From sequence record OK570374: a stretch of DNA of 64,000 bases. One strand, 5' to 3'. The notes under the pieces are model-generated. The model was not told the DNA's origin. It worked only from the letters and a program-made list of their open reading frames with translations, and did no database searches. The DNA is from Escherichia phage UoN_LG358_1. This document shows positions 1 to 15,867 of this stretch, in pieces. Numbering within the stretch: position 1 is the stretch's first letter; each line of letters begins with the position of its first letter. The position numbers were made by a program, and so were the translations under genes.

Positions 1-2317
<2,317 letters not shown>

Positions 2318-2347
2318 TACTAAAGCACACATCTAGAGGATTTATTC

Positions 2348-4324
2348 ATGGCTTTACTCTCGCCGGGCGTTGAGCTCAAAGAAACTAGTGTACAAAGCAC
2401 TATTGTTAATAATGCTACAGGCCGTGCCGCTATCGCTGGTAAATTTCAATGGGGTCCTGCATTTCAGGTAATTCAGGTAACCAATGAAGTTGAACTCGTC
2501 GATTTATTTGGTACTCCTAATAGCGAAACTGCTGATTATTTTATGTCAGCTATGAACTTCTTGCAATACGGTAATGATTTACGTGTAGCACGTGCAGTTA
2601 ATCGTGACGTGGCGAAAAACTCTTCTCCTATTGCAGAAAATATTGAAACCACAATTTCCGCGGCTGGTTCTAACTATACAGTTGGCGATGTTATCCGTGT
2701 ACGTCATAATATGGATGTAATTGAAACTGCTGGTAAAGTTACTCGTGTAGATGCTGACGGTAAAATTCTGGGAGTGTATATTCCTACTGGTAAAATTATC
2801 GCTTATGCGAAAAGTACTAACCAATATCCAGACCTAGGTCCAAACTGGACTGCAGAAATAGCTTCAAGTTCTTCTGGCGTATCTGGTACTATTACTCTTG
2901 GAAAAATTATCACTGATTCTGGTATTTTGTTAACTGAACCTGAAAATGCTTATGAAGCTATTCGTAATACCACTTTCCAGAACAATTTGAAAAAATATGG
3001 TATGCCGGGTGTAGTTGCTCTTTATCCAGGTGAAATCGGCTCTCAACTTGAAATTGAAATTGTTTCAAAAGCTACGTATGAAAAGGGCGCGGCATCTGAA
3101 CTTTCAATTTATCCAACGGGCGGAACTCGAGTTACTACCGCGCGGGCAGTATTTGGTTATGGTCCACAAACTGATGACCAATACGCGATTATTGTTCGCC
3201 GTGATGGAGCAATTGTAGAGTCAGCTGTTCTTTCAACTAAAGAAGGCGAAAAAGACATTTACGGAAATAACATCTATATGGATGATTATTTTGCCAAAGG
3301 TTCTAGTAACTATATTTTTGGAACAGCAATAGGCTGGCCTAAAGGTTTTTCTGGCATCATCAAATTGAACGGCGGCATTTCTGCGAACTCAGCTGTTACC
3401 GCAGGCGATGTAATGCAAGCATGGGATTTATTTGCTGACCGCGAAGCATTGCACGTTAACTTACTTATTGCTGGCGCGTCTGCAGGCGAAAGTTTAGAAT
3501 TTGCTTCTACTGTGCAGAAACACGTAGTTTCTATTGCCGACGAACGCCAAGATTGTCTTGCTTTAATTTCTCCTCCGCGTGAAATTATCGTAAATATTCC
3601 GTTAACTCGTGCTATTGATAACTTGGTTAACTGGCGTACAGCATCGGCAGCTTATACCGACGATAACATGAACATCAGTTCAACTTACGCATTTATTGAT
3701 GGTAACTATAAATATCAATATGATAAGTACAATGATGTTAACCGTTGGGTGCCACTTTCTGCTGATATGGCGGGTCTGTGCGCTCGTACTGATAATGTTA
3801 GTCAACCTTGGATGTCTCCAGCTGGTTATAACCGTGGTCAAATTCTGAACGTAATTAAACTAGCTGTTGAAGCTCGTCAACCGCAACGTGACCGTTTGTA
3901 TCAAGAAGCAATTAACCCGGTTACTGGCACAGGTGGTGATGGTTTTGTTCTGTTTGGCGATAAAACTGCTACCAAAGTTCCAACTCCATTTGACCGTGTT
4001 AACGTTCGTCGTTTGTTTAATATGCTGAAAACGAATATCGGTAATTCATCGAAATATCGTCTGTTTGAGATTAACGATAACTTTACTCGTTCTTCTTTCC
4101 GCATGGAAACTAGCCAGTATCTGCAGGGAATTAAAGCTCTTGGTGGTATGTATGAGTATCGCGTAGTTTGTGATACTACTAATAACACCCCATCGGTCAT
4201 CGATCGTAATGAGTTTGTTGCAAGCTTTTATGTGAAGCCCGCGAGATCGATAAATTATATTACCCTCAACTTCGTTGCAACTGCGACTGGTGCGGATTTC
4301 GACGAATTGATCGGACCGCAATAA
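2348..4324 (+). CDS. 18: contractile tail sheath protein
   Basis: 658 aa (T4 gp18 is about 659); TATAAATA box about 30 nt upstream; position after gene 17. Confidence 0.95.
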   Translation: MALLSPGVELKETSVQSTIVNNATGRAAIAGKFQWGPAFQVIQVTNEVELVDLFGTPNSETADYFMSAMNFLQYGNDLRVARAVNRDVAKNSSPIAENIETTISAAGSNYTVGDVIRVRHNMDVIETAGKVTRVDADGKILGVYIPTGKIIAYAKSTNQYPDLGPNWTAEIASSSSGVSGTITLGKIITDSGILLTEPENAYEAIRNTTFQNNLKKYGMPGVVALYPGEIGSQLEIEIVSKATYEKGAASELSIYPTGGTRVTTARAVFGYGPQTDDQYAIIVRRDGAIVESAVLSTKEGEKDIYGNNIYMDDYFAKGSSNYIFGTAIGWPKGFSGIIKLNGGISANSAVTAGDVMQAWDLFADREALHVNLLIAGASAGESLEFASTVQKHVVSIADERQDCLALISPPREIIVNIPLTRAIDNLVNWRTASAAYTDDNMNISSTYAFIDGNYKYQYDKYNDVNRWVPLSADMAGLCARTDNVSQPWMSPAGYNRGQILNVIKLAVEARQPQRDRLYQEAINPVTGTGGDGFVLFGDKTATKVPTPFDRVNVRRLFNMLKTNIGNSSKYRLFEINDNFTRSSFRMETSQYLQGIKALGGMYEYRVVCDTTNNTPSVIDRNEFVASFYVKPARSINYITLNFVATATGADFDELIGPQ

Positions 4325-4333
4325 TATCTCACT

Positions 4334-4350
4334 GGGCCTTCGGGCCCTTT
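4334..4350 (+). terminator. hairpin terminator after gene 18
   Basis: GGGCC-ttcg-GGCCC followed by TTT. Confidence 0.6.
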
Positions 4351-4359
4351 GGATTAAAA

Positions 4360-4980
4360 GTGATTATCTCTAAAACTGTTAAGATAAAAATCGTTCCTCA
4401 GAACTTCAAGTACTTCTCTAATCTTGGATATAAACTATCTCCGCTTGGAGCAGTTAAACATGGATTTGAATATTATTCTATCGATGTTAGTGTAGAGCAT
4501 CTAAAACCTGGATCAAATATTGATGTAGAATGTGTATGTGATAAATGCAGTGAGCATTATACTCAAAGATTTTGTAGAAATACTGATGTATGTTATGAAT
4601 GTAGAAGTGGAAAATTTAAGCTCGGCAATAAAATTGGAACTAAGAACAAAGGAAAAATCTTGGTTTCTATGCACGGCGAAAATCATCCTCGTTGGAATCC
4701 AAACAAATCAGACTACAATAAGTACGCTTCTGAAGTTCGTCGCATAACCAATAGAAATAAATCGATTTATTCAAAGTGGGAAAATTTCGATAAAATCGGA
4801 TTATGTGGTGTAGAAGGAGCTTATCAGTTAGATCACAAGGTTTCTATCAAATACGGATTTTATCATCATATACCAGCAGAAATTATAGGGTGTATTGACA
4901 ATTTAGAGATAATCACTTGGGAATCCAATAGAGATAAGTCCGGTAAATCTAGTATCGATTTATGGGATTTACTTAAGTGA
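4360..4980 (+). CDS. putative HNH-type homing endonuclease (free-standing)
   Basis: 206 aa between genes 18 and 19; Cys cluster CVCDKCSEH..CYECR, HGENHPRWNP, and DHKV..IDNLEIITWESNRDK resembling an HNH core; track start is GTG; hairpins on both sides. Confidence 0.5.
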   Translation: MIISKTVKIKIVPQNFKYFSNLGYKLSPLGAVKHGFEYYSIDVSVEHLKPGSNIDVECVCDKCSEHYTQRFCRNTDVCYECRSGKFKLGNKIGTKNKGKILVSMHGENHPRWNPNKSDYNKYASEVRRITNRNKSIYSKWENFDKIGLCGVEGAYQLDHKVSIKYGFYHHIPAEIIGCIDNLEIITWESNRDKSGKSSIDLWDLLK

Positions 4981-5088
4981 TCATAGAATTAACTTAGGGA
5001 CCTTCTAACGAGGGTCCATAAATATATACAGATCACACAATTTAATTCGTCTCGATGGTTCTGGTGAATCTGGAGCTATATAAATAAA

Positions 5089-5096
5089 CACATAGA
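5089..5096 (+). promoter_or_regulatory. late promoter box for gene 19
   Basis: TATAAATA upstream of the ATG at 5104. Confidence 0.7.
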
Positions 5097-5103
5097 GGTT
5101 ATT

Positions 5104-5595
5104 ATGTTTCTTGATGACATGACTCGTGCATTTGAGTCTGGCGACTTAGCTCGTCCTAACTTGTTTGAAGTAGAAATTCCGTACCTTGGCAGAAACTTTA
5201 GCTTTAAATGTAAAGCTGCTCCAATGCCCGCTGGTATCGTAGAAAAAGTACCAGTTGGTTATATGAACCGTAAAATCAACTTAGCTGGTGACCGTACATT
5301 TGATGATTGGACTGTGACTATCTATAACGATGATGCTCATACTACTCGTCAAGCTATCGTTGACTGGCAGGCTATCTGTCATGGTCAAGGCAACGAAATT
5401 ACTGGCGGTACTCCGGCTGAATATAAGAAAACTGCGGTTGTTCGTCAATACCATCGTGATGGTAAGACAGTAACTAAAGAAGTAACAATCACCGGGCTGT
5501 GGCCAACTAACGTTGGTGAAGTACAAATGGATTGGGATTCGAATAACGAGATAGAAACGTTTGAAGTAACGTTTGCGATGGACTGGTGGTTGTAA
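5104..5595 (+). CDS. 19: tail tube protein
   Basis: 163 aa, same length as T4 gp19; TATAAATA 8 nt upstream region; position. Confidence 0.9.
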   Translation: MFLDDMTRAFESGDLARPNLFEVEIPYLGRNFSFKCKAAPMPAGIVEKVPVGYMNRKINLAGDRTFDDWTVTIYNDDAHTTRQAIVDWQAICHGQGNEITGGTPAEYKKTAVVRQYHRDGKTVTKEVTITGLWPTNVGEVQMDWDSNNEIETFEVTFAMDWWL

Positions 5596-5600
5596 TAAAT

Positions 5601-5632
5601 ATATTCAAACCTCAACTTCATTGTTTGAATAT
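5601..5632 (+). other. AT-rich hairpin downstream of gene 19
   Basis: Perfect 10-bp inverted repeat ATATTCAAAC / GTTTGAATAT with 12-nt loop. Confidence 0.4.
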
Positions 5633-5655
5633 ATTGCACTTATCTTACAATTTAT

Positions 5656-5684
5656 ACGGGGAATAAACTTCCCCGTCATTTTTT
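5656..5684 (+). terminator. rho-independent terminator after gene 19
   Basis: ACGGGGA-ataaact-TCCCCGT then TTTTTT. Confidence 0.7.
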
Positions 5685-5701
5685 AGATGCTGCAAAACTG
5701 T

Positions 5702-5709
5702 TATAAATA
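5702..5709 (+). promoter_or_regulatory. late promoter box for gene 20
   Basis: TATAAATA about 35 nt upstream of the ATG at 5744. Confidence 0.7.
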
Positions 5710-5743
5710 AGTATATGCTTATTACCCTTTCACGGAGACTCTA

Positions 5744-7309
5744 ATGAATTTCAATATTTTAAGTCTTTTTGCTCCTTGGGCGAAAGAAGACGAACAAAAT
5801 TATAAAGAACAAATTAAAAATGACTTAGAGTCTATTACTGCTCCAAAACTGGATGACGGTGCGCATGAGATTGAGTCTTCAGCCAATGAAGCTTCTTATA
5901 ACGGCCTGTTCCAAAAAATGCTAGGAAGTCATGAACCTGGCATGAAAAATACCAGGGAGCTTATCAATACATACCGTAATTTGATGAATAATTACGAAGT
6001 TGATAACGCTGTACAAGAAATAGTAATGGATTCTATCGTATACGAAGACGGTCATGAAGTTGTTGCTATTGAGCTTGATACAACGGATTTTAGTCAACGT
6101 ATAAAAGACCGGATTATTGAAGAATTTAACGAAGTTTTAAATTGTCTTAATTTTCAAAGAAAAGGCGCTGATCATTTTAGGCGTTGGTATATCGATTCCA
6201 GAATTTTCTTTCACAAAATAATAAATCCAAAAAACGTCAAAGAAGGAATTCAGGAGCTCCGTCGTTTAGACCCACGAAATGTTCAATATATCAGAGAAGT
6301 TGTAACTGATATGGAACAAGGAGTAAAAATTGTAAAAGGGTATAAAGAATATTTTATATACGACACCGGCAATGAGTCTTATCAATGCGACGGCAGAACG
6401 TATGATGCCGGCACAAAAATAAAAATTCCTAAATCTGCTGTAGTATATGCTCATTCTGGTCTAGTAGATTGTACTGGACAAAATATAATCGGATATTTGC
6501 ATCGGGCTGTTAAACCGGCTAACCAACTGAAATTGATGGAAGATGCTTTAGTTATTTACCGTATTACCCGTGCTCCTGACCGTCGTGTATTTTATATTGA
6601 TACAGGGAATATGCCTTCACGAAAGGCTGCGCAACACATGCAAAATATCATGAACACGATGAAAAACCGTGTTGTATATGATGCATCTACAGGTAAAATT
6701 AAAAATCAGCAACACAATATGTCCATGACGGAAGATTATTGGTTGCAACGTCGTGACGGAAAAGCAGTAACAGAAATTGATACTCTTCCGGGTATGTCAG
6801 GAATGAGTGATATGGATGACGTTCGTTGGTTCAGAAACGCTCTTTATATGGCTTTACGAGTTCCATTATCTCGTATTCCTAACGACCAACAAGGCGGAGT
6901 TCAATTCGATGCCGGCACATCTATCACTAGAGACGAATTAAGTTTTACAAAATTTATCCGTGAGCTTCAGCATAAATTTGAAGAAATCTTCTTAGACCCT
7001 CTTAAAACTAATTTAATTTTAAAAGGCGTAATTACTGAAGATGAGTGGAATGATGAAATAAATAATATTAAGATTTCATTCCACCGCGATTCATATTTCT
7101 CCGAGCTTAAAGACGCTGAAATCATGGAACGCAGAATCAATATGCTTCAGATGGCCGAACCATTTATTGGTAAATATATTTCGCATCGTTCAGCTATGAA
7201 AGATATTCTTCATATGAGCGACGAGGAAATTGAACAAGAGGCTAAGCAAATTGAACAAGAGTCTAAAGAGGCTCGTTACCAAGACCCAGAAAATCAAGAG
7301 GATTTCTAA
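5744..7309 (+). CDS. 20: portal vertex protein
   Basis: 521 aa; late promoter upstream; position between 19 and 67. Confidence 0.95.
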
Positions 7310-7551: not shown

Positions 7552-7976
7552 TGTTTCTTATCCCTGAAGACCATGAATTAGTAATCGAAAATGTCGAGAC
7601 TCTTATTCCAGAAGCTCAGGGCCGTTACGAGTCATTATCAAAAGCGTTAAGCAAAGACGATATAAATACAATTGTAGAAAACATGATTGAAACCGATACC
7701 GATTTAGCAATTGCACTCGGTTCAATTAACGAAGATATGCAAATTAACGAATTTATCGTTAAGCATGTTTCAAGTAAAGGCGAAATAACTCGAACTAAAG
7801 ACCGAGCTACTAGAGCTAGAAACGCATTTCAAACTACAGGATTGTCTAAAGCTAAACGCCGCCAAATTGCTCGTAAGGCAACCAAGTCAAAACGTGCTAA
7901 TCCGTCAGGACAAGCTCGTGGACTTCGTAAACGTAAGAAAGCTATGAAGCGCCGCAAAGCGTTAGGATTAAGCTAA
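7551..7976 (+). CDS. 68: prohead core protein
   Basis: 141 aa; TAATG coupling to gene 67; basic C-terminus; position before the protease gene. Confidence 0.65.
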
Positions 7977-8581
7977 TGAAAAAATATGGTAACCACAGAA
8001 AAATTTGGGAAGCAGTTAATGGTCCTATACCATTAGATGAATTTGGACGTAGTTACCATATACATCATATTGACGGAAATCCAGCGAACAATGAATTATC
8101 AAATTTATTATGCTTAAGCCCAAATGACCATTTTGAATTACACAGGTCTCAAGGCGATTTCGGGGCAGCGTTTTTATTACTGAATAACCATTTATCTTTA
8201 TCCGCAGAAGAGCGCTCTGATATTATATCTAAGGCAAATTCAAATAGATGGAAAAATTATTCTGATGCTGAACGCAAAAGCATAATAAATAAAAATAGAA
8301 ATTCAAATATATTTACTTGGTCTTCTGAAAGGCTTCGAAGAGAGACTGGTGCTAAAATTAGTGCATCACACTCAGCCAGGACCAAAGAGCAGAAAGAGCA
8401 AGAATCAATATTAAGATCTTCTTCTATAAAATCTGCTTGGAAATCTAGTTCATTTGACGCTCAAAGAGAACATATGTCAACTAAAGTTGTATGTCCTCAT
8501 TGCGGAAGGGAAGGACAAAAAGCTGCTATGAGCAGATACCATTTTGACAGGTGCAAATATGGAAGAGCAGTTATTAATTGA
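7976..8581 (+). CDS. HNH homing endonuclease-like protein
   Basis: 201 aa; motif YHIHHIDGNPANNELSNLLCLSPNDHFELH; inserted between 68 and 21 and overlapping the gene 21 start. Confidence 0.7.
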   Translation: MKKYGNHRKIWEAVNGPIPLDEFGRSYHIHHIDGNPANNELSNLLCLSPNDHFELHRSQGDFGAAFLLLNNHLSLSAEERSDIISKANSNRWKNYSDAERKSIINKNRNSNIFTWSSERLRRETGAKISASHSARTKEQKEQESILRSSSIKSAWKSSSFDAQREHMSTKVVCPHCGREGQKAAMSRYHFDRCKYGRAVIN

Positions 8582-10076: not shown

Positions 10077-11636
10077 ATGAAAAAGAATAAACTCGTAGAA
10101 AAATGGCAGCCGCTGCTGGAAAACGAAGAACTGCCGGAAATTGTTGGTGCTAGTAAAAAAGCTCTGATTGCTAAAATTCTTGAAAACCAGGAAGCAGATT
10201 TTAAAGTATCTCCGGAATACCGTGATGAGAAAATCGCTCAAGCTTTCGGTTCTTTCTTGACTGAAGCTGAAATTGGCGGAGACCACGGTTACGATGCTCA
10301 GAATATCGCTGCAGGTCAGACTTCTGGCGCAGTAACTCAGATTGGGCCGGCTGTTATGGGTATGGTCCGTCGTGCTATCCCTAACCTGATTGCTTTTGAT
10401 ATCTGTGGCGTTCAGCCAATGAACAGCCCTACCGGTCAGGTTTTCGCTCTTCGTGCTGTATACGGTTCTGACCCGCTGGCTGATAAAGCAAAAGAAGCTT
10501 TCCATCCGATGTATTCTCCGGACGCAATGCATTCTGGTCAAGGTGCCGCTGAGAAATTCGCTAAATTGACCGCTGGCGTTGCTATCACTGAAGGCGATAT
10601 CGTTGTTCATGATTTTGCTGAAACAGGTCGCGCTTATCTGCAGGCTGTAGTTGCTGTAACTCCAGATGCTGGCGCTACTGACCCGGCTAAACTCGACGCT
10701 GCTGTAGTTGCTCTGATGGAAGCTGGTCAGCTGGCTGAAATCGCTGAAGGCATGGCTACCTCTATCGCTGAACTTCAGGAAGGATTTAACGGTTCCCAGA
10801 ATAACTCTTGGAATGAAATGGGTTTCCGTATCGATAAACAAGTTATCGAAGCTAAATCTCGCCAACTGAAAGCTGCATATTCCATCGAATTGGCACAGGA
10901 CCTCCGTGCTGTTCACGGTATGGATGCTGACGCTGAACTGAGTGGTATTTTGGCTACTGAAATCATGCTGGAAATTAACCGTGAAGTTGTAGATTGGATT
11001 AACTTCTCTGCACAGGTTGGTAAATCTGGTATGACCCAGACTGTTGGTTCTAAAGCTGGTGTATTTGACCTTCAGGACCCTATCGATATCCGCGGTGCTC
11101 GTTGGGCTGGTGAAAGCTTTAAAGCTCTTCTGTTCCAGATTGACAAAGAAGCTGCAGAAATTGCACGTCAGACTGGCCGCGGTGCTGGTAACTTCATCAT
11201 CGCTTCCCGCAACGTAGTTAACGTTCTGGCTGCTGTTGATACTTCCGTATCTCCTGCTGCTCAGGGTCTGGGTCGTGGTTTTGAAACTGATACCACTAAA
11301 GCAGTATTCGCTGGTGTTCTTGGCGGTAAATATCGCGTCTATATTGACCAGTATGCTCGTCAGGACTACTTCACCATCGGTTATAAAGGCGCTAACGAAA
11401 TGGATGCTGGTATTTACTACGCTCCTTACGTTGCTCTTACTCCGCTTCGTGGTTCCGATCCGAAGAACTTCCAGCCGGTCATGGGGTTCAAAACTCGTTA
11501 TGGTATCGGTATTAACCCGTTCGCTGATTCTGCTGCACAGCAACCTAAAGGCCGTATCGTTTCCGGTATGCCTTCTCTGGTTAACTCTGTTGGTAAGAAC
11601 GCTTACTTCCGTCGAGTTTACGTCAAAGGAATTTAA
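10077..11636 (+). CDS. 23: major capsid protein
   Basis: 519 aa (T4 gp23 about 521); strong hairpin plus T-run terminator after the stop. Confidence 0.95.
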   Translation: MKKNKLVEKWQPLLENEELPEIVGASKKALIAKILENQEADFKVSPEYRDEKIAQAFGSFLTEAEIGGDHGYDAQNIAAGQTSGAVTQIGPAVMGMVRRAIPNLIAFDICGVQPMNSPTGQVFALRAVYGSDPLADKAKEAFHPMYSPDAMHSGQGAAEKFAKLTAGVAITEGDIVVHDFAETGRAYLQAVVAVTPDAGATDPAKLDAAVVALMEAGQLAEIAEGMATSIAELQEGFNGSQNNSWNEMGFRIDKQVIEAKSRQLKAAYSIELAQDLRAVHGMDADAELSGILATEIMLEINREVVDWINFSAQVGKSGMTQTVGSKAGVFDLQDPIDIRGARWAGESFKALLFQIDKEAAEIARQTGRGAGNFIIASRNVVNVLAAVDTSVSPAAQGLGRGFETDTTKAVFAGVLGGKYRVYIDQYARQDYFTIGYKGANEMDAGIYYAPYVALTPLRGSDPKNFQPVMGFKTRYGIGINPFADSAAQQPKGRIVSGMPSLVNSVGKNAYFRRVYVKGI

Positions 11637-11653
11637 GATTTAACCTTAATTAA

Positions 11654-11677
11654 GGGAACCTTCGGGTTCCCTTTTTT
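11654..11677 (+). terminator. rho-independent terminator after gene 23
   Basis: GGGAACC-ttcg-GGTTCCC then TTTTTT. Confidence 0.85.
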
Positions 11678-11699
11678 CGTTTTTGATGTAAAACAATAT

Positions 11700-11707
11700 T
11701 ATAAATA
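11700..11707 (+). promoter_or_regulatory. late promoter box for gene 24
   Basis: TATAAATA 26 nt upstream of the ATG at 11733. Confidence 0.7.
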
Positions 11708-11732
11708 AAATATATCACAAAAGGAAAGCGCA

Positions 11733-13016
11733 ATGGCAAAGATTAACGAATTACTGCGCGAGTCAACTACAACTTCTAGCAGCTCTTTAGCTCGTCCTAA
11801 TTTGGTTGCTTTGACCCGTGCTACCACTAAATTAATTTACAGCGATATTATCGCAGAACAACGTACCAATCAACCTGTAGCGGCTCTTTATGGAGTAAAA
11901 TATCTAACTCCAGATAATGAGTTTAGTTTTCAAACTGGTGCTACTTATGGCGGACAAATCAGTGAAAAAGACCGTGAAACTATTCCAGAATTAACTAGTA
12001 AAACTCAAACACTTGCGGTTGGTGATTATTTTAAATATCAAAATGTTGTGTATAAAGCTTTACAAGCTAATCCGTTAGCATCTACAAGCGCAACAGATTT
12101 ATCAGACGCACTGCAAGAAGGATTAATTTCTCTTACTTGCCGTTTAGTTCCAGACGCTGCTAATACTGAAAAATTTGAAGATACCGACGTTGAAATTAGT
12201 AGTGCTGTATTTGAAGTAAATAAATGGAATGCTCCTGTTAAAACTCGTAAATTGAAAACCTCGTTGACTGTCGAACTTGCGCAGGATATGGAGTCAAACG
12301 GGTTCGATTCTCCAGCATTTTTAGAAGATTTATTGGCTACAGTTATGGCTGATGAAATTAATAAAGATGTTCTTCAGTCACTGATTACGGTGTCTAAGCG
12401 GTACAAAGTTACAGGTGTTTCTGATAATGGTATTGTAGACTTGAGTTACGCAAATGCCCCGGAAGCTTCACGCAAACTGTATGAAATTGTGTGTGAAATG
12501 AATTCAGAAATTCAGAAAACAACTTCTTATTCGGGTACTTACGTAGTAGCTTCTTCTAGAGCAGCCGCATTGCTGGCAGGTTCAGGCTGGTTAAAACATC
12601 GTCCAGAAGATGATGAATGGTTGCCTTCTACCGCGTATGGATATCTGTTAAATGGGCTTCCTGTATTCTGCGATGTAAATAGTCCTCTGGATTATGTGAC
12701 GGTAGGCGTTAAAGAAAACTACGGTGGAAAAGAAGTAGTTGGTTCTATTTTTTACGCTCCATACACAGAAGGATTAGACCTAGATGACCCGGACCATATC
12801 GGTGCATATAAGGTAATTGTTGACCCAGATAGTTTGCAACCATCAATTTCATTGATGATACGTTATGCTTTGTCTGCTAACCCGTATACAGTAGCTAAAG
12901 ATGAGAAAGAAGCTCGCATCATAGATGCTACTGACATGGATAAAATGGCTGGACAAAGTGATATGTCATATTTGGTTGGGGTTAAACTGCCTAAAATAAT
13001 TTATGAGGCGCCTTAA
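11733..13016 (+). CDS. 24: capsid vertex protein
   Basis: 427 aa; N-terminus MAKINELLRESTTT.. matches remembered T4 gp24; TATAAATA at 11700..11707. Confidence 0.9.
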   Translation: MAKINELLRESTTTSSSSLARPNLVALTRATTKLIYSDIIAEQRTNQPVAALYGVKYLTPDNEFSFQTGATYGGQISEKDRETIPELTSKTQTLAVGDYFKYQNVVYKALQANPLASTSATDLSDALQEGLISLTCRLVPDAANTEKFEDTDVEISSAVFEVNKWNAPVKTRKLKTSLTVELAQDMESNGFDSPAFLEDLLATVMADEINKDVLQSLITVSKRYKVTGVSDNGIVDLSYANAPEASRKLYEIVCEMNSEIQKTTSYSGTYVVASSRAAALLAGSGWLKHRPEDDEWLPSTAYGYLLNGLPVFCDVNSPLDYVTVGVKENYGGKEVVGSIFYAPYTEGLDLDDPDHIGAYKVIVDPDSLQPSISLMIRYALSANPYTVAKDEKEARIIDATDMDKMAGQSDMSYLVGVKLPKIIYEAP

Positions 13017-14296
13017 TGCAAAAAATAGATAATTTAATTAGAGAATCTACTGTCTCATCGGCCAACTCGCTTGGCCGTCCTAATTTATTGTCATATACAA
13101 AAGCTACAAATAAGCGTATTTTCAAATCTCTCGTTGCTGAACAGAAAACTAATCAGCCGATTGCTGCGTTATATGGAATACGCGTTCTTAATCCAGTTGA
13201 TAAAATGACATATTTAGGCGGCGCTACTTATGCTGGTCAAATTGGTTTGTCTGAACGCGAATCACTACCTTTAGCTTCTACTCCATCCCAATCTTTTAAT
13301 AAAGGTGAGATGTTTTTATTTGAAGATGTTGTTTTTAAAGCGTTAGAAGATAATCCATTCGCTGGAACAGCTGAGACTGATATGAGAGAAGTTATTTCAG
13401 AAGCTATCGCTGCTGGACATATCAGAATGGTATCTGATGCCGCTAACACAAACAAGTTTGAAAATGGTCACCCAGAAATTGCCGAAGCTGGATTTCGTAT
13501 TGATAAATGGCAAACTGAAGTTAAATCCCGTAAATTGAAAACCTCAATAACTGTTGAGTTAGCACAGGATTTAGAGTCTAATGGTTTTGACGCTCCAAAT
13601 TTTATCGAAGATGTTTTAGCAGTACAAATGGCTGAAGAAATTAATAAAGATGTTCTTCAGTCATTGATTACAGTGTCCAGCCGGTTTAAAGTACAAGGTA
13701 TATCGGAAAAAGGTGTTTTAAATTTAACCGATCCTAAATACGATAATGCTCAAGACCGCGCGCGTACTCTTTATTATTATATGTGCGAAATGAATTCCGC
13801 AGTTCAGAGACAAACATCATTTTCTGGTACATACGCAGTAGCTTCATCTCGATGTGCCGCGATTTTAGCTGCATCCGGTTGGGTTGAAAAATCAGAAGAC
13901 CAAGATGAGTTAGCATATGGTGTATTAAAAAATGGTTTGCCACTCTATGCTGATGTAAACAGCCCATGTGATTACGTTATTGTCGGTGTAAATGCTGATT
14001 TAGGTGAAGGACAGACGGTTGCATCACTGTATTATGCTCCGTATGTTGAGGGGCTAGATGATGTTGATGAAGAAGGTGATACTTCTGTTGGCGAGTTCAA
14101 AGTAATTGTTGACCCAGATAGTTTACAGCCTACTATTGCTCTTTTAGCTCGGTATGCATTAACTGCTAATCCATATACAGTAGCTAAAGATGAGAAAGAG
14201 GCACGAGTTATTGATGGTGCTGACATGGATAAAATGGCTAATCAAAGCCAATTAAGTTCTTATCTTGGCGTTAAGTTACCACCGCTTGAGAAATAA
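13016..14296 (+). CDS. second gp24-like vertex protein paralog
   Basis: 426 aa; colinear similarity to the preceding ORF (LIRESTVSS..GRPNL, VKSRKLKTSITVELAQDLESNGFDAPNF, ANPYTVAKDEKEAR); TAATG start/stop overlap. Confidence 0.8.
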   Translation: MQKIDNLIRESTVSSANSLGRPNLLSYTKATNKRIFKSLVAEQKTNQPIAALYGIRVLNPVDKMTYLGGATYAGQIGLSERESLPLASTPSQSFNKGEMFLFEDVVFKALEDNPFAGTAETDMREVISEAIAAGHIRMVSDAANTNKFENGHPEIAEAGFRIDKWQTEVKSRKLKTSITVELAQDLESNGFDAPNFIEDVLAVQMAEEINKDVLQSLITVSSRFKVQGISEKGVLNLTDPKYDNAQDRARTLYYYMCEMNSAVQRQTSFSGTYAVASSRCAAILAASGWVEKSEDQDELAYGVLKNGLPLYADVNSPCDYVIVGVNADLGEGQTVASLYYAPYVEGLDDVDEEGDTSVGEFKVIVDPDSLQPTIALLARYALTANPYTVAKDEKEARVIDGADMDKMANQSQLSSYLGVKLPPLEK

Positions 14297-14317
14297 GAAA
14301 AAAGGGCCTTCGGGCCC
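14297..14317. terminator. bidirectional hairpin terminator between the second gene 24 copy and the minus-strand block
   Basis: GGGCC-ttcg-GGCCC with an A-run on the plus side (U-run for minus transcripts). Confidence 0.6.
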
Positions 14318-14881
14318 TTATAAACTAAATATATCAAACTTCGGAGCATACTGTTCTTGTAGCTCTTCGAAAACTTTCTTATCATTCAAATTTGTACAAG
14401 GTATTCCGTGTTGTCTTGCAATACGAGTAGCTATACGAGTTCCACCCTGTTCTTCCCCATTTCTTACTGGACACCAATAATAAACGCGGTCAACCGGTGA
14501 CATACAATCTTCTCCCAAAACTTGCATCGCATTTCGACAGAACAATGTCTTTATAATATCTCGTTCAGAATCCAGCCCTGGATAAGCTTGCTTAGCTTTG
14601 ACGTAACTCTTTATACGAGATTCATTACTTAAATCAGACCAGCAAACCACACCAATACCGGTGTGGCAATGATTAAACCCATCATAAGGAATAATCCTAA
14701 GCGAAAGATGTCTATCATATCTGCTCAACCAAGCTTCGTCTGAGCCTGGAGCTCCACCAGAATAAGAGAAATGACCAGCCTCCGAAAAGGCCAATCCCAT
14801 TAAACTCATTAAGTCAAGATACTTTCTTGGTGCTTCTCTTGACCCGATTAATGCTAATCTTAACTTACGATTTCTAGCCAT
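14318..14881 (-). CDS. DprA/Smf-like (SLOG-type) Rossmann-fold protein, function unknown
   Basis: 187 aa; [10 protein letters not shown] .. [11 protein letters not shown] resembles the DprA/SLOG glycine-rich nucleotide-binding pattern; start overlaps rnlB stop by 22 nt. Confidence 0.45.
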
Positions 14882-15867
14882 TTTTCTCTGATAGTATTAC
14901 TCACAACAGTCTGAAGTTCTCGTTTTACGAGGTCCGGATTATCAGCATGAACAATATCAACACCTTCTCGTTTAGCTTCAATAAAGATATCCTGTATTGT
15001 CAGACCCATAACCTTACCGAAGTCTTTAGCTTTAACTTCGCCAATATGACTAATCACGTTAGATACACGGTTCCACGTAGAGTATTCACAGAGGTTCGCC
15101 AGAACGGTCGAGTCGTTACTAGTTAATACAGCTTTAGGTTTAATTGGCTTATCAGATTTTTTCTTCTCAGTGAATCTGGAGTTCTTAGATTTAATTGCAA
15201 TGCGGGTGCCATTATTAAAGAAATCAGGATAAACTGGTTTTAGTACGTAACCTTCAGCAACATTATCATCTGTCACTAATGGGTCAAATACACACAAATT
15301 GACTTCTTTCAAATCATCTTTTGCTGCTTCGTTATAAGCTTTGATTACAGATGTAAAATTATTTGGTAATTGAATAAGTTCATCAAAAGAACCACATCCA
15401 ATAAATGGAGCCATTTTAAATCCGAATTCGTTACAGAACGAAGTCATCATCATATCGTCCATATAAAGAACATTACCATTTTGAGTATTTACTAGAATGT
15501 CAAATACATAAAAGTCTTTTTCACCATAATCAACTTCTTTCTGAATTCCTTGACCCGCGAACTCACCAAAAATTTGATAAGAACTTACTGAACCAAGTTC
15601 ATTCGCATTCATGCATCGTTGAATAGTTTTAATAGACTCGTCATAATTCTTCAATATAATTTCGTGGCCATAGAATGATTCACTAGGAAGAATGGGACCA
15701 CTGCGCTTGCACGCAGAAACTGAGTCTTTGGATACGATGATTGAGAAATTAGTGCCATGAATTTTTTCACGAGCTACCCACAGACCACCATCTTTACCTT
15801 CAAACCGAATTTTAGAAATAAATTTATTGTTGTAGTGGTTTTCAAGAGAGGAGTACTTCTTAAACAT
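14860..15867 (-). CDS. rnlB: RNA ligase 2
   Basis: 335 aa; N-terminus [13 protein letters not shown] and KIHGTN adenylylation motif match remembered T4 Rnl2. Confidence 0.9.

Follow-up and report, generated by a model that had tools for sequence, protein, structure and literature searches.

Two vertex protein genes side by side

In phage T4 one vertex protein, gp24, fills all 11 vertices of the head, and it is dispensable after a point mutation in gp23. Here we describe a locus that carries two genes for this protein, in Escherichia phage UoN_LG358_1 (sequence record OK570374). Coordinates refer to the window, by which we mean the whole stretch of 64,000 nucleotides that was analysed, unless a segment of another genome is named. 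The first gene, copy A (11733..13016, + strand), starts with ATG and encodes a canonical capsid vertex protein of 427 amino acids, the ortholog of T4 gp24. The second, copy B (13016..14296, + strand), also starts with ATG and encodes 426 amino acids, a divergent 'type II' paralog of the vertex protein. Upstream of both lies gene 23 (10077..11636, + strand), which encodes the major capsid protein of 519 amino acids (Pfam PF07068, E 1e-121), whose hexamers make up the lattice that receives the gp24 pentamers. In a megablast search with positions 11000-15000 of the window as the query, the region was 100% identical to Salmonella phage STP4-a (NC_026607, Gelderlandvirus) and 99.4% identical to S16. 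Gene 23 is labelled 'major head protein' in the STP4-a record.

The two proteins are full-length, colinear paralogs. BLASTP aligns them over their full length with 236/428 identities (55%) and 75% positives (E 9e-177), and the identity between A and B is 55-58% in every genome compared. Each protein consists almost entirely of a Gp23-family (HK97-type) capsid domain: PF07068 is the sole Pfam match of both and spans residues 20-417 of A (E ~1e-98 to 1.4e-97) and residues 19-419 of B (E ~1e-101 to 1.2e-100). PHROG 138 is likewise the sole PHROG for both (A E 6e-131, B E 3e-125). The gp24 of the T4-type phage RB32 is 71% identical to A and 58% identical to B, and the solved structure of T4 gp24 (PDB 1YUE) matches A with 672 bits over residues 1-424 and B with 518 bits over residues 1-423. 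In contrast, the T4 gp23 chains in the PDB score just 45-52 bits against A and B, and the phage's own gp23 gives partial-length matches to them with 23-28% identity. By these measures gp24 is the nearer relative of both proteins, and both are colinear with its solved structure.

These results bear on an earlier reading of the locus, made from the letters of the DNA alone, which we call the original prediction. It had described two adjacent, colinear open reading frames of 427 and 426 amino acids, and its coordinates proved exact. The shared blocks that it quoted could be located: A contains VKTRKLKTSLTVELAQDMESNGFDSPAF, B contains VKSRKLKTSITVELAQDLESNGFDAPNF, and the C-terminal block ANPYTVAKDEKEAR...DMDKMA is found in A and B alike. 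It had also placed the first frame nearer to T4 gp24 than the second, in agreement with the RB32 and 1YUE comparisons above, and its view that the second frame is gp24-like survives alignment against the gp23 and gp24 families (PF07068, PHROG 138 and the match to 1YUE).

T4 gp24 is cut by the prohead protease after residue 10 (PMC9958956, PMC9546572). At residues 7-11, A has LLRE followed by S(T) and B has LIRE followed by S(T); the core of this motif, L/I-x-E followed by S (residues 8-11), is kept in 8/8 A and 8/8 B sequences. At least 150 of 427 alignment columns are invariant across the A, B and single-copy proteins compared. The ratio of non-synonymous to synonymous substitution rates (dN/dS), estimated between STP4-a and CGG4-1 at an unsaturated synonymous divergence (dS) of 0.85-0.98, is 0.031 for A and 0.054 for B. 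Both copies are intact and under strong purifying selection.

We also looked for traces of exchange between the two copies and of foreign origin. Gene conversion or concerted evolution between A and B can be ruled out, as the A and B genes of one genome are no more alike in nucleotide sequence (60-62%) than those of different genomes (61%); the longest exact run common to A and B is 27 nt. No horizontal-transfer signature appears in the composition: A and B are indistinguishable in G+C content (0.389 and 0.382), in G+C content at third codon positions (GC3), in the effective number of codons (43.4 and 43.5) and in the codon adaptation index referenced to gp23, which is similar for the two.

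Operon layout and expression

Copy A fills the gene-24 slot, after gene 23 and behind a late promoter, and copy B separates it from the rnlB region. The upstream boundary is formed by a terminator-like hairpin with a T-run after gene 23 (11652..11673, + strand), which has a 9-bp stem with 5 GC pairs and a TTTTCGTTTT tail. It is followed by a T4-type late promoter motif, TATAAATA (11700..11707, + strand), 26 nt before the ATG of A. From gene 23 to the end of B, the + strand has no second motif of this kind. The same motif stands 33-36 nt upstream of A in JS10, PWKp16, CGG4-1 and Q7622, and also upstream of the single gene 24 in RB32 and JD18. Within the A genes of STP4-a, JS10, PWKp16, CGG4-1 and Q7622 we found no late promoter motif.

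Translation signals precede both genes. A Shine-Dalgarno sequence for A (AAGGA, 11721..11725, + strand) belongs to a ribosome-binding context, (A/G)AGGAAAGCGCAATG, that is kept in all gene-24 loci compared, including RB32 and JD18. The Shine-Dalgarno sequence for B (GAGG, 13005..13008, + strand) lies inside the last codons of A, 8 nt upstream of the overlap between the genes, and GAGG is found at the equivalent position in JS10, CGG4-1 and Q7622. The overlap itself, TAATG, was noticed in the original prediction: the stop codon of A occupies 13014-13016 and the start codon of B 13016-18. In every lineage the two genes are joined either by TAATG or by a stop/start gap of at most 1 nt.

Directly after B is a GC-rich hairpin (AAGGGCC-TTCG-GGCCCTT, 14302..14319, not assigned to either strand), which B has in common with a convergent DprA-like gene. 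It scores as a terminator on the minus strand, while the + strand is without a clean T-run; it is likely to be a bidirectional terminator that closes the A-B unit. Taken together, the single late promoter, the lack of a further one within A and the coupling signals (TAATG with the internal GAGG) support the co-transcription of B with A and its translational coupling to A. The suggestion that one late transcript serves both genes fits this layout, with its single late promoter before A and none within A-B. The same operon architecture is common to five isolate genomes and to uncultivated contigs.

Distribution and earlier annotation

The original prediction implied that the pair was new, and here it went wrong. 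Genes STP4a_164 and STP4a_165 of STP4-a correspond to A and B, and both are annotated 'head vertex protein'. Further pairs in Gelderlandvirus occur in S16, STML-198, Melville and CGG4-1 (where they are named 'head vertex protein I/II'). In Dhakavirus there are pairs in JS10 ('24a/24b', an EU-series accession), VR7 ('24(2)'), IME08 ('24b'), VR5, Bp7, WG01 and many more. Marfavirus contributes F48, Marfa and PWKp16, with 22 records, and Kanagawavirus contributes Q7622 and ZX14 ('head vertex protein II'). The Erwinia phage FBB1 also has two vertex proteins. With B as the tblastn query, 1418 phage records gave 1537 gp24 places, hence up to ~119 records with two. The pair is therefore a known and widespread feature, annotated here and in ~100 related phages, and its novelty is low.

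Many relatives have a single gp24, namely the T4-type, RB69, CC31, EcS1, RZ, JD18, Acinetobacter and RB43-type genomes. One gene 24 is found in the examined genomes of Tequatrovirus, Mosigvirus, Karamvirus, Kagamiyamavirus, Gaprivervirus and Jiaodavirus. The statement of the original prediction that T4 has one gene 24 is in keeping with the single gp24 place of the T4-type phages (RB32, RB51, wV7 and others). As to remnants of B in single-copy genomes, RB32 and RZ have no room for one: just ~27-30 bp separate their gene 24 from rnlB.

Where B-type genes occur, they do so in company. An A-type gene lies directly upstream at 16/16 IMG/VR loci that bear a B-type gene. In a large protein collection the B-type proteins form a continuum down to 65% identity, and the three most divergent ones that were looked up (65-69% identity, from four uncultivated T4-like contigs) are each encoded second in a gp23-A-B array, with TAATG or an adjacent stop and start at the A-B junctions. 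We found no stand-alone B-type gene among the isolate genomes, IMG/VR loci and uncultivated contigs examined. B is a distinct, deeply branching 'type II' lineage of gp24, and it is the second gene of an A-B pair wherever it has been found.

The searchable open literature yielded neither virion proteomics of a pair-bearing phage nor an account of the role of the second gp24, of its copy number or of the effect of its deletion. The second gp24 is unaddressed in papers on STP4-a, CkP1, Morganella MP1, in Petrov 2010, in the Hoc and Jiaodavirus proteomics papers and in Tn-seq preprints. The PDB holds no capsid structure with two gp24 proteins; the sole relatives there are T4 gp24 and gp23.

The age of the pair

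Neighbour-joining trees were built from BLOSUM and Kimura distances with 100-200 bootstraps, for the full-length proteins and for three segments. The B copies form one clade (bootstrap 93-100%), and all A copies together with all single-copy gp24s form the other (bootstrap 68-86%). The two clades show the same internal branching, and identity among B orthologs across genera is 78-92%. The A copies of the four genera group with T4, RB69, CC31, EcS1 and RZ to the exclusion of the A copy from the uncultivated lineage (78-80%), a split that is mirrored in the B tree. When characters were polarised with Acinetobacter phages and RB43 as outgroups, 7 of them placed B outside A and the single-copy proteins, compared with 2 and 2 for the alternatives.

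The congruence of the A and B trees suggests that the pair is probably older than the T4-type lineages, and the split between A and B probably came before the sampled Tevenvirinae radiated. T4, with its single gene 24, may then have lost B. Another route to the same distribution is that an A-B cassette may have moved between lineages as a unit. Trees of gp23 and gp22, used as a species backbone, are poorly resolved and mosaic.

The two gp24 types have also met by recombination. The gp24 of Klebsiella phage JD18 (Jiaodavirus; 4001-5281 of the examined segment) is canonical at T4 residues 1-95 and 310-427, but its middle (T4 residues ~105-300) is sister to all B copies with 100% bootstrap. At the sites that are diagnostic of B, JD18 has the canonical residue at 9/9 in the N-terminal part; the middle sites are split, four with the B residue and two with the canonical one. 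With its canonical ends and B-type middle, this gene records a past recombination between gp24 types, and B-type sequence has been recombined into a single-copy gene at least once. JD18 thus resembles the pair-bearing phages in that part of its gp24 falls with the B-type clade, and differs from them in having one mosaic gene of two types instead of a pair.

Mosaicism extends to the adjoining head genes. The gp23 of JS10, which has two gp24 genes (1578-3137 of its segment), is 98% identical to that of the Gaprivervirus RZ, which has one (4960-6519 of its segment). Their gp22 proteins are 87% identical, yet the gp24 of RZ and copy A of JS10 are only 69% identical. Evolution or exchange at the gene-24 locus does not follow that of the adjoining gene 23. 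The gap between gene 23 and copy A is itself variable: in CGG4-1 it holds a SegD-like homing endonuclease (3177-3836 of the segment, minus strand), in JS10 and RZ it holds small minus-strand open reading frames, and in STP4-a it holds none. Homing endonucleases at this place may promote recombination at the gene-24 locus.

Where the second copy differs

The differences between the two types are unevenly spread. At 21 sites B is fixed for a residue that differs from the one invariant in A and in all single-copy gp24s, and the reverse pattern (A and single-copy proteins compared with B) is seen at 1 site. When the uncultivated lineage is included, 10 strict diagnostic sites remain (V25L, A26S, T32N, L34R, Y36F, K56R, Y57V, Y108F, P244Q and E335Q), and 7/10 of them fall at T4 positions 25-57. 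This region has a recognisable signature, LLS[YF]TxATNKRIF in B as opposed to LVALTRATTKL[IV]Y in A and T4.

A comparison by region gives the same picture. Over residues 11-59 (T4 numbering throughout) A is 80% identical to T4 and B 57%, although this part is 84% conserved within B. In I-domain linker 1 (60-81) the values are 65% for A and 43% for B; here A and B are 37% identical to each other and 73-75% conserved within each type. Further along the protein the two copies are about equally close to T4: 56% for A and 59% for B in I-domain linker 2 (143-160), 80% and 75% in the P domain and spine (161-230), and 77% and 76% over the last 65 residues. In the B-type proteins of the four genera there is also a 3-residue acidic insertion (EEGDT in STP4-a) at residues ~350-356 of the B protein, which corresponds to the 348-359 loop of T4. 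In T4 gp24 this loop is disordered in the vertex-bound gp24* of the unexpanded head.

What do these regions do in T4? According to Fang et al. 2022 (PMC9546572), residues 26-29 of gp24* enter a parallel beta interaction upon expansion, and their partner is an I-domain linker in the next gp24* subunit. Within a pentamer each I domain lies on the subunit beside it, and I-domain linker 2 and the AP loop touch gp23 capsomers (PMC9546572). From the alignment of B onto this contact map we infer that B has changed mostly in its contacts within the pentamer and has kept those with the hexamer lattice. An AlphaFold2 model of B, made from a 17-sequence alignment, had a mean predicted local distance difference test (pLDDT) score of 44 and a predicted template modelling (pTM) score of 0.33, and this confidence is too low for use. 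The HK97 fold and the I domain are accordingly assigned to B by homology, from its 58% identity to 1YUE.

Two pentamers or one?

The explanation that we favour, with a probability of roughly 60%, is a two-gene late operon for two anciently separated gp24 paralogs that both serve as vertex subunits, with B in pentamers of its own. Both genes would be transcribed from the single gene-24 late promoter, with B translated through coupling. Both proteins would be made as precursors that the prohead protease presumably cuts after Glu10, and both would then join the same gp23 lattice at the pentameric vertices of the prolate head. The differences of B appear to sit in the elements that hold a pentamer together (residues ~25-57, I-domain linker 1, the I domain and the A-domain region), and the elements predicted to touch gp23 (I-domain linker 2, the P domain and spine, and the C-terminal third) look as T4-like in B as in A. 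Divergence within the pentamer combined with kept capsomer contacts favours separate homopentamers over mixing, and A and B would most likely occupy different subsets of the 11 vertices. The gp23 of JS10, which lives with the pair, is nearly the same as that of RZ, which lives with a single gp24, and this suggests that B can be accommodated without special changes to the hexamer lattice. The pair would be older than the radiation of the sampled Tevenvirinae; T4 would then more likely have lost B, or an A-B cassette would have moved horizontally.

That said, a number of points weigh against this explanation. The PDB and the searchable literature offer no accessible proteomics and no two-gp24 capsid structure that would place B in the virion. 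All 55 gp24* subunits of T4 are conformationally alike across the vertex classes (PMC9546572), which means that a prolate head has no evident need for two penton types. The case for homopentamers comes from region-wise conservation aligned onto T4, not from a model of B. As regards the age of the pair, the key deep nodes have only moderate support (68-86%) in distance trees, and the long stem of the B clade may reflect a long-branch artefact or a burst of change after duplication. Furthermore, the mosaicism of head genes may allow cassette transfer to mimic an ancient pair followed by losses.

A more specific and rather speculative form of the idea is that the pentons are specific to position, with one type at the apical vertex or in one ring of five and the other type elsewhere. 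Two-penton heads would in that case be ancestral and the head of T4 a simplified one.

The original prediction had raised mixed or alternative capsid vertices, both of which are hypotheses. The two proteins might instead co-assemble in hetero-pentamers, so that both paralogs are present at every vertex in a fixed or random ratio. We regard this as possible but unlikely. The tight coupling of the genes, which holds in all lineages, is typical of partners that are made at linked stoichiometry and in one place, and the central and C-terminal blocks of A and B, including the region of the spine helix, are 72% identical and offer much shared surface. However, a symmetric alternation of two subunit types is impossible in a five-fold ring. 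Both sides of the contact, segment 25-36 and I-domain linker 1, differ between the types and are conserved within each, and the low identity of linker 1 between A and B, set against its conservation within each type, resembles two self-consistent interfaces.

It is less probable still that B is an alternative or back-up vertex protein for particular conditions, such as temperature, host chaperones, gut stresses or a defence system that senses gp24, and that either copy suffices. The VR phages, which belong to the pair-bearing Dhakavirus, are presumably low-temperature phages. A link between gp24 and host defence is established in T6, where gp24 determines sensing by type IV Thoeris and an A380V mutant escapes (PMC13243611). 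This sensing is dominant, though: a supply of wild-type gp24 restored immunity (PMC13243611), and Ala380 is kept in both A and B. Duplication alone would therefore give no escape from Thoeris as long as A is made, and we reject defence escape by duplication. With one promoter and coupled translation there is also no sign of differential expression. The strict co-retention of the two genes, together with strong purifying selection across a saturated synonymous divergence, argues against simple redundancy.

There is little to recommend the view that B is an assembly factor or decoy that is absent from mature heads, acting for example in protease activation at the vertices or in the titration of a host factor. 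In T4 the attachment of gp24 to the prohead vertices has been proposed as the trigger of gp21 activation (review PMC9958956), and a paralog could in principle specialise in this role. B nevertheless keeps the full length of gp24, all domains and the cleavage motif, and shares in the at least 150/427 invariant columns; its capsomer-contacting regions are conserved as in A, and nothing hints that a structural function was lost.

Finally, a recent, lineage-specific tandem duplication with a redundant or decaying second copy is refuted: the genes are indeed adjacent, colinear and on the same strand, but A and B fall in separate clades and are not sister groups in any tree, their identity is no more than 55-58% in every genome and their synonymous sites are saturated, T4 gp24 matches A at 71% identity while A and B match each other at ~56%, B is intact with a dN/dS of 0.054, and the pair is common to at least four genera and to divergent uncultivated lineages. 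The term tandem duplication in the original prediction holds for the adjacent paralogs and fails for a local event, as A and B are not each other's closest relatives.

Relation to known systems

The closest known system is T4 gp24 itself (PDB 1YUE, 5VF3, 7VS5 and 8GMO). It aligns with the proteins described here from end to end and has the same length, Pfam family and residue-10 cleavage site, and with A it also shares the late promoter, the ribosome-binding context and the slot between gene 23 and rnlB. The difference is that T4 has one gene 24 and the window has two, and that B has its own N-terminal signature, a different I domain and the acidic insertion at 348-359. The pairs of the JS98/JS10-like phages (Dhakavirus), the S16-like phages (Gelderlandvirus), Marfavirus and Kanagawavirus are the same feature, with the same gene order and stop/start coupling. 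To these annotations the present analysis adds that the pair appears to be ancient, that B is the divergent partner and that, as far as the compared sequences indicate, B is always accompanied by A.

An older event of the same kind is the duplication that separated gp23 and gp24, in that a capsid paralog was kept beside its parent and specialised for one position in the lattice; gp24 has been described as a diverged duplicate of gp23 (review PMC9958956). Those two proteins are ~20-28% identical and have clearly different roles, whereas A and B are 55% identical. Outside the phages, the alpha-carboxysome microcompartments have adjacent paralogous genes, CsoS4A and CsoS4B, for the pentameric vertex protein of a polyhedral shell. 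Their fold and biological system are unrelated to gp24 and the comparison is an analogy only.

Why do many relatives of T4 keep two strongly conserved vertex proteins where T4 uses one? The question becomes sharper with a second type that is probably ancient, was never found alone, differs mainly at the subunit grip and has left a mark of recombination in the single gene of Jiaodavirus. If the two types do sit on different vertices, this would touch on what specifies and stabilises a prolate capsid, and it would matter for the engineering of T4-like heads as display and delivery platforms. Should the pentons moreover be specific to position, this would be the first tailed-phage capsid shown to have a penton protein that varies with the class of five-fold vertex.

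Neighbouring genes

Two neighbouring genes of the window vary between related phages. Between gp68 and the gene for the prohead protease, an open reading frame for an HNH endonuclease is inserted (7976-8581, + strand) that matches Pfam HNH_3 (E 1.9e-12), carries the annotation 'intron-like DNA endonuclease' and runs into the start region of the protease gene. It is absent at the equivalent site in CGG4-1 and JS10, where gp68 abuts gp21. On the other side of the pair, the DprA-like gene (14318-14881, minus strand) lies between copy B and rnlB. It matches PHROG 768 (E 3e-55) and has no Pfam match. Open reading frames of similar size occupy this place in JD18 and CC31, and CGG4-1, JS10 and RB32 lack the gene; judged by these genomes, the site beside the vertex genes is a variable slot.

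Other genes follow copy B elsewhere. In the Marfavirus PWKp16 it is a 244-amino-acid open reading frame (5308-6042 of the segment, + strand), which is without a PHROG match and has no counterpart in STP4-a or JS10. In uncultivated T4-like contigs (4890-6427 and 5326-6841 of the segments) two open reading frames on the same strand lie directly downstream of B. The first is collagen-like or fibre-like (PHROG 5073, 'tail fiber protein', E 1e-43). The second, of 165 amino acids, matches only the C-terminal, capsid-binding part of Hoc-like proteins (PHROG 1149, E 6e-37), and together the two may form a split or alternative head-decoration fibre.

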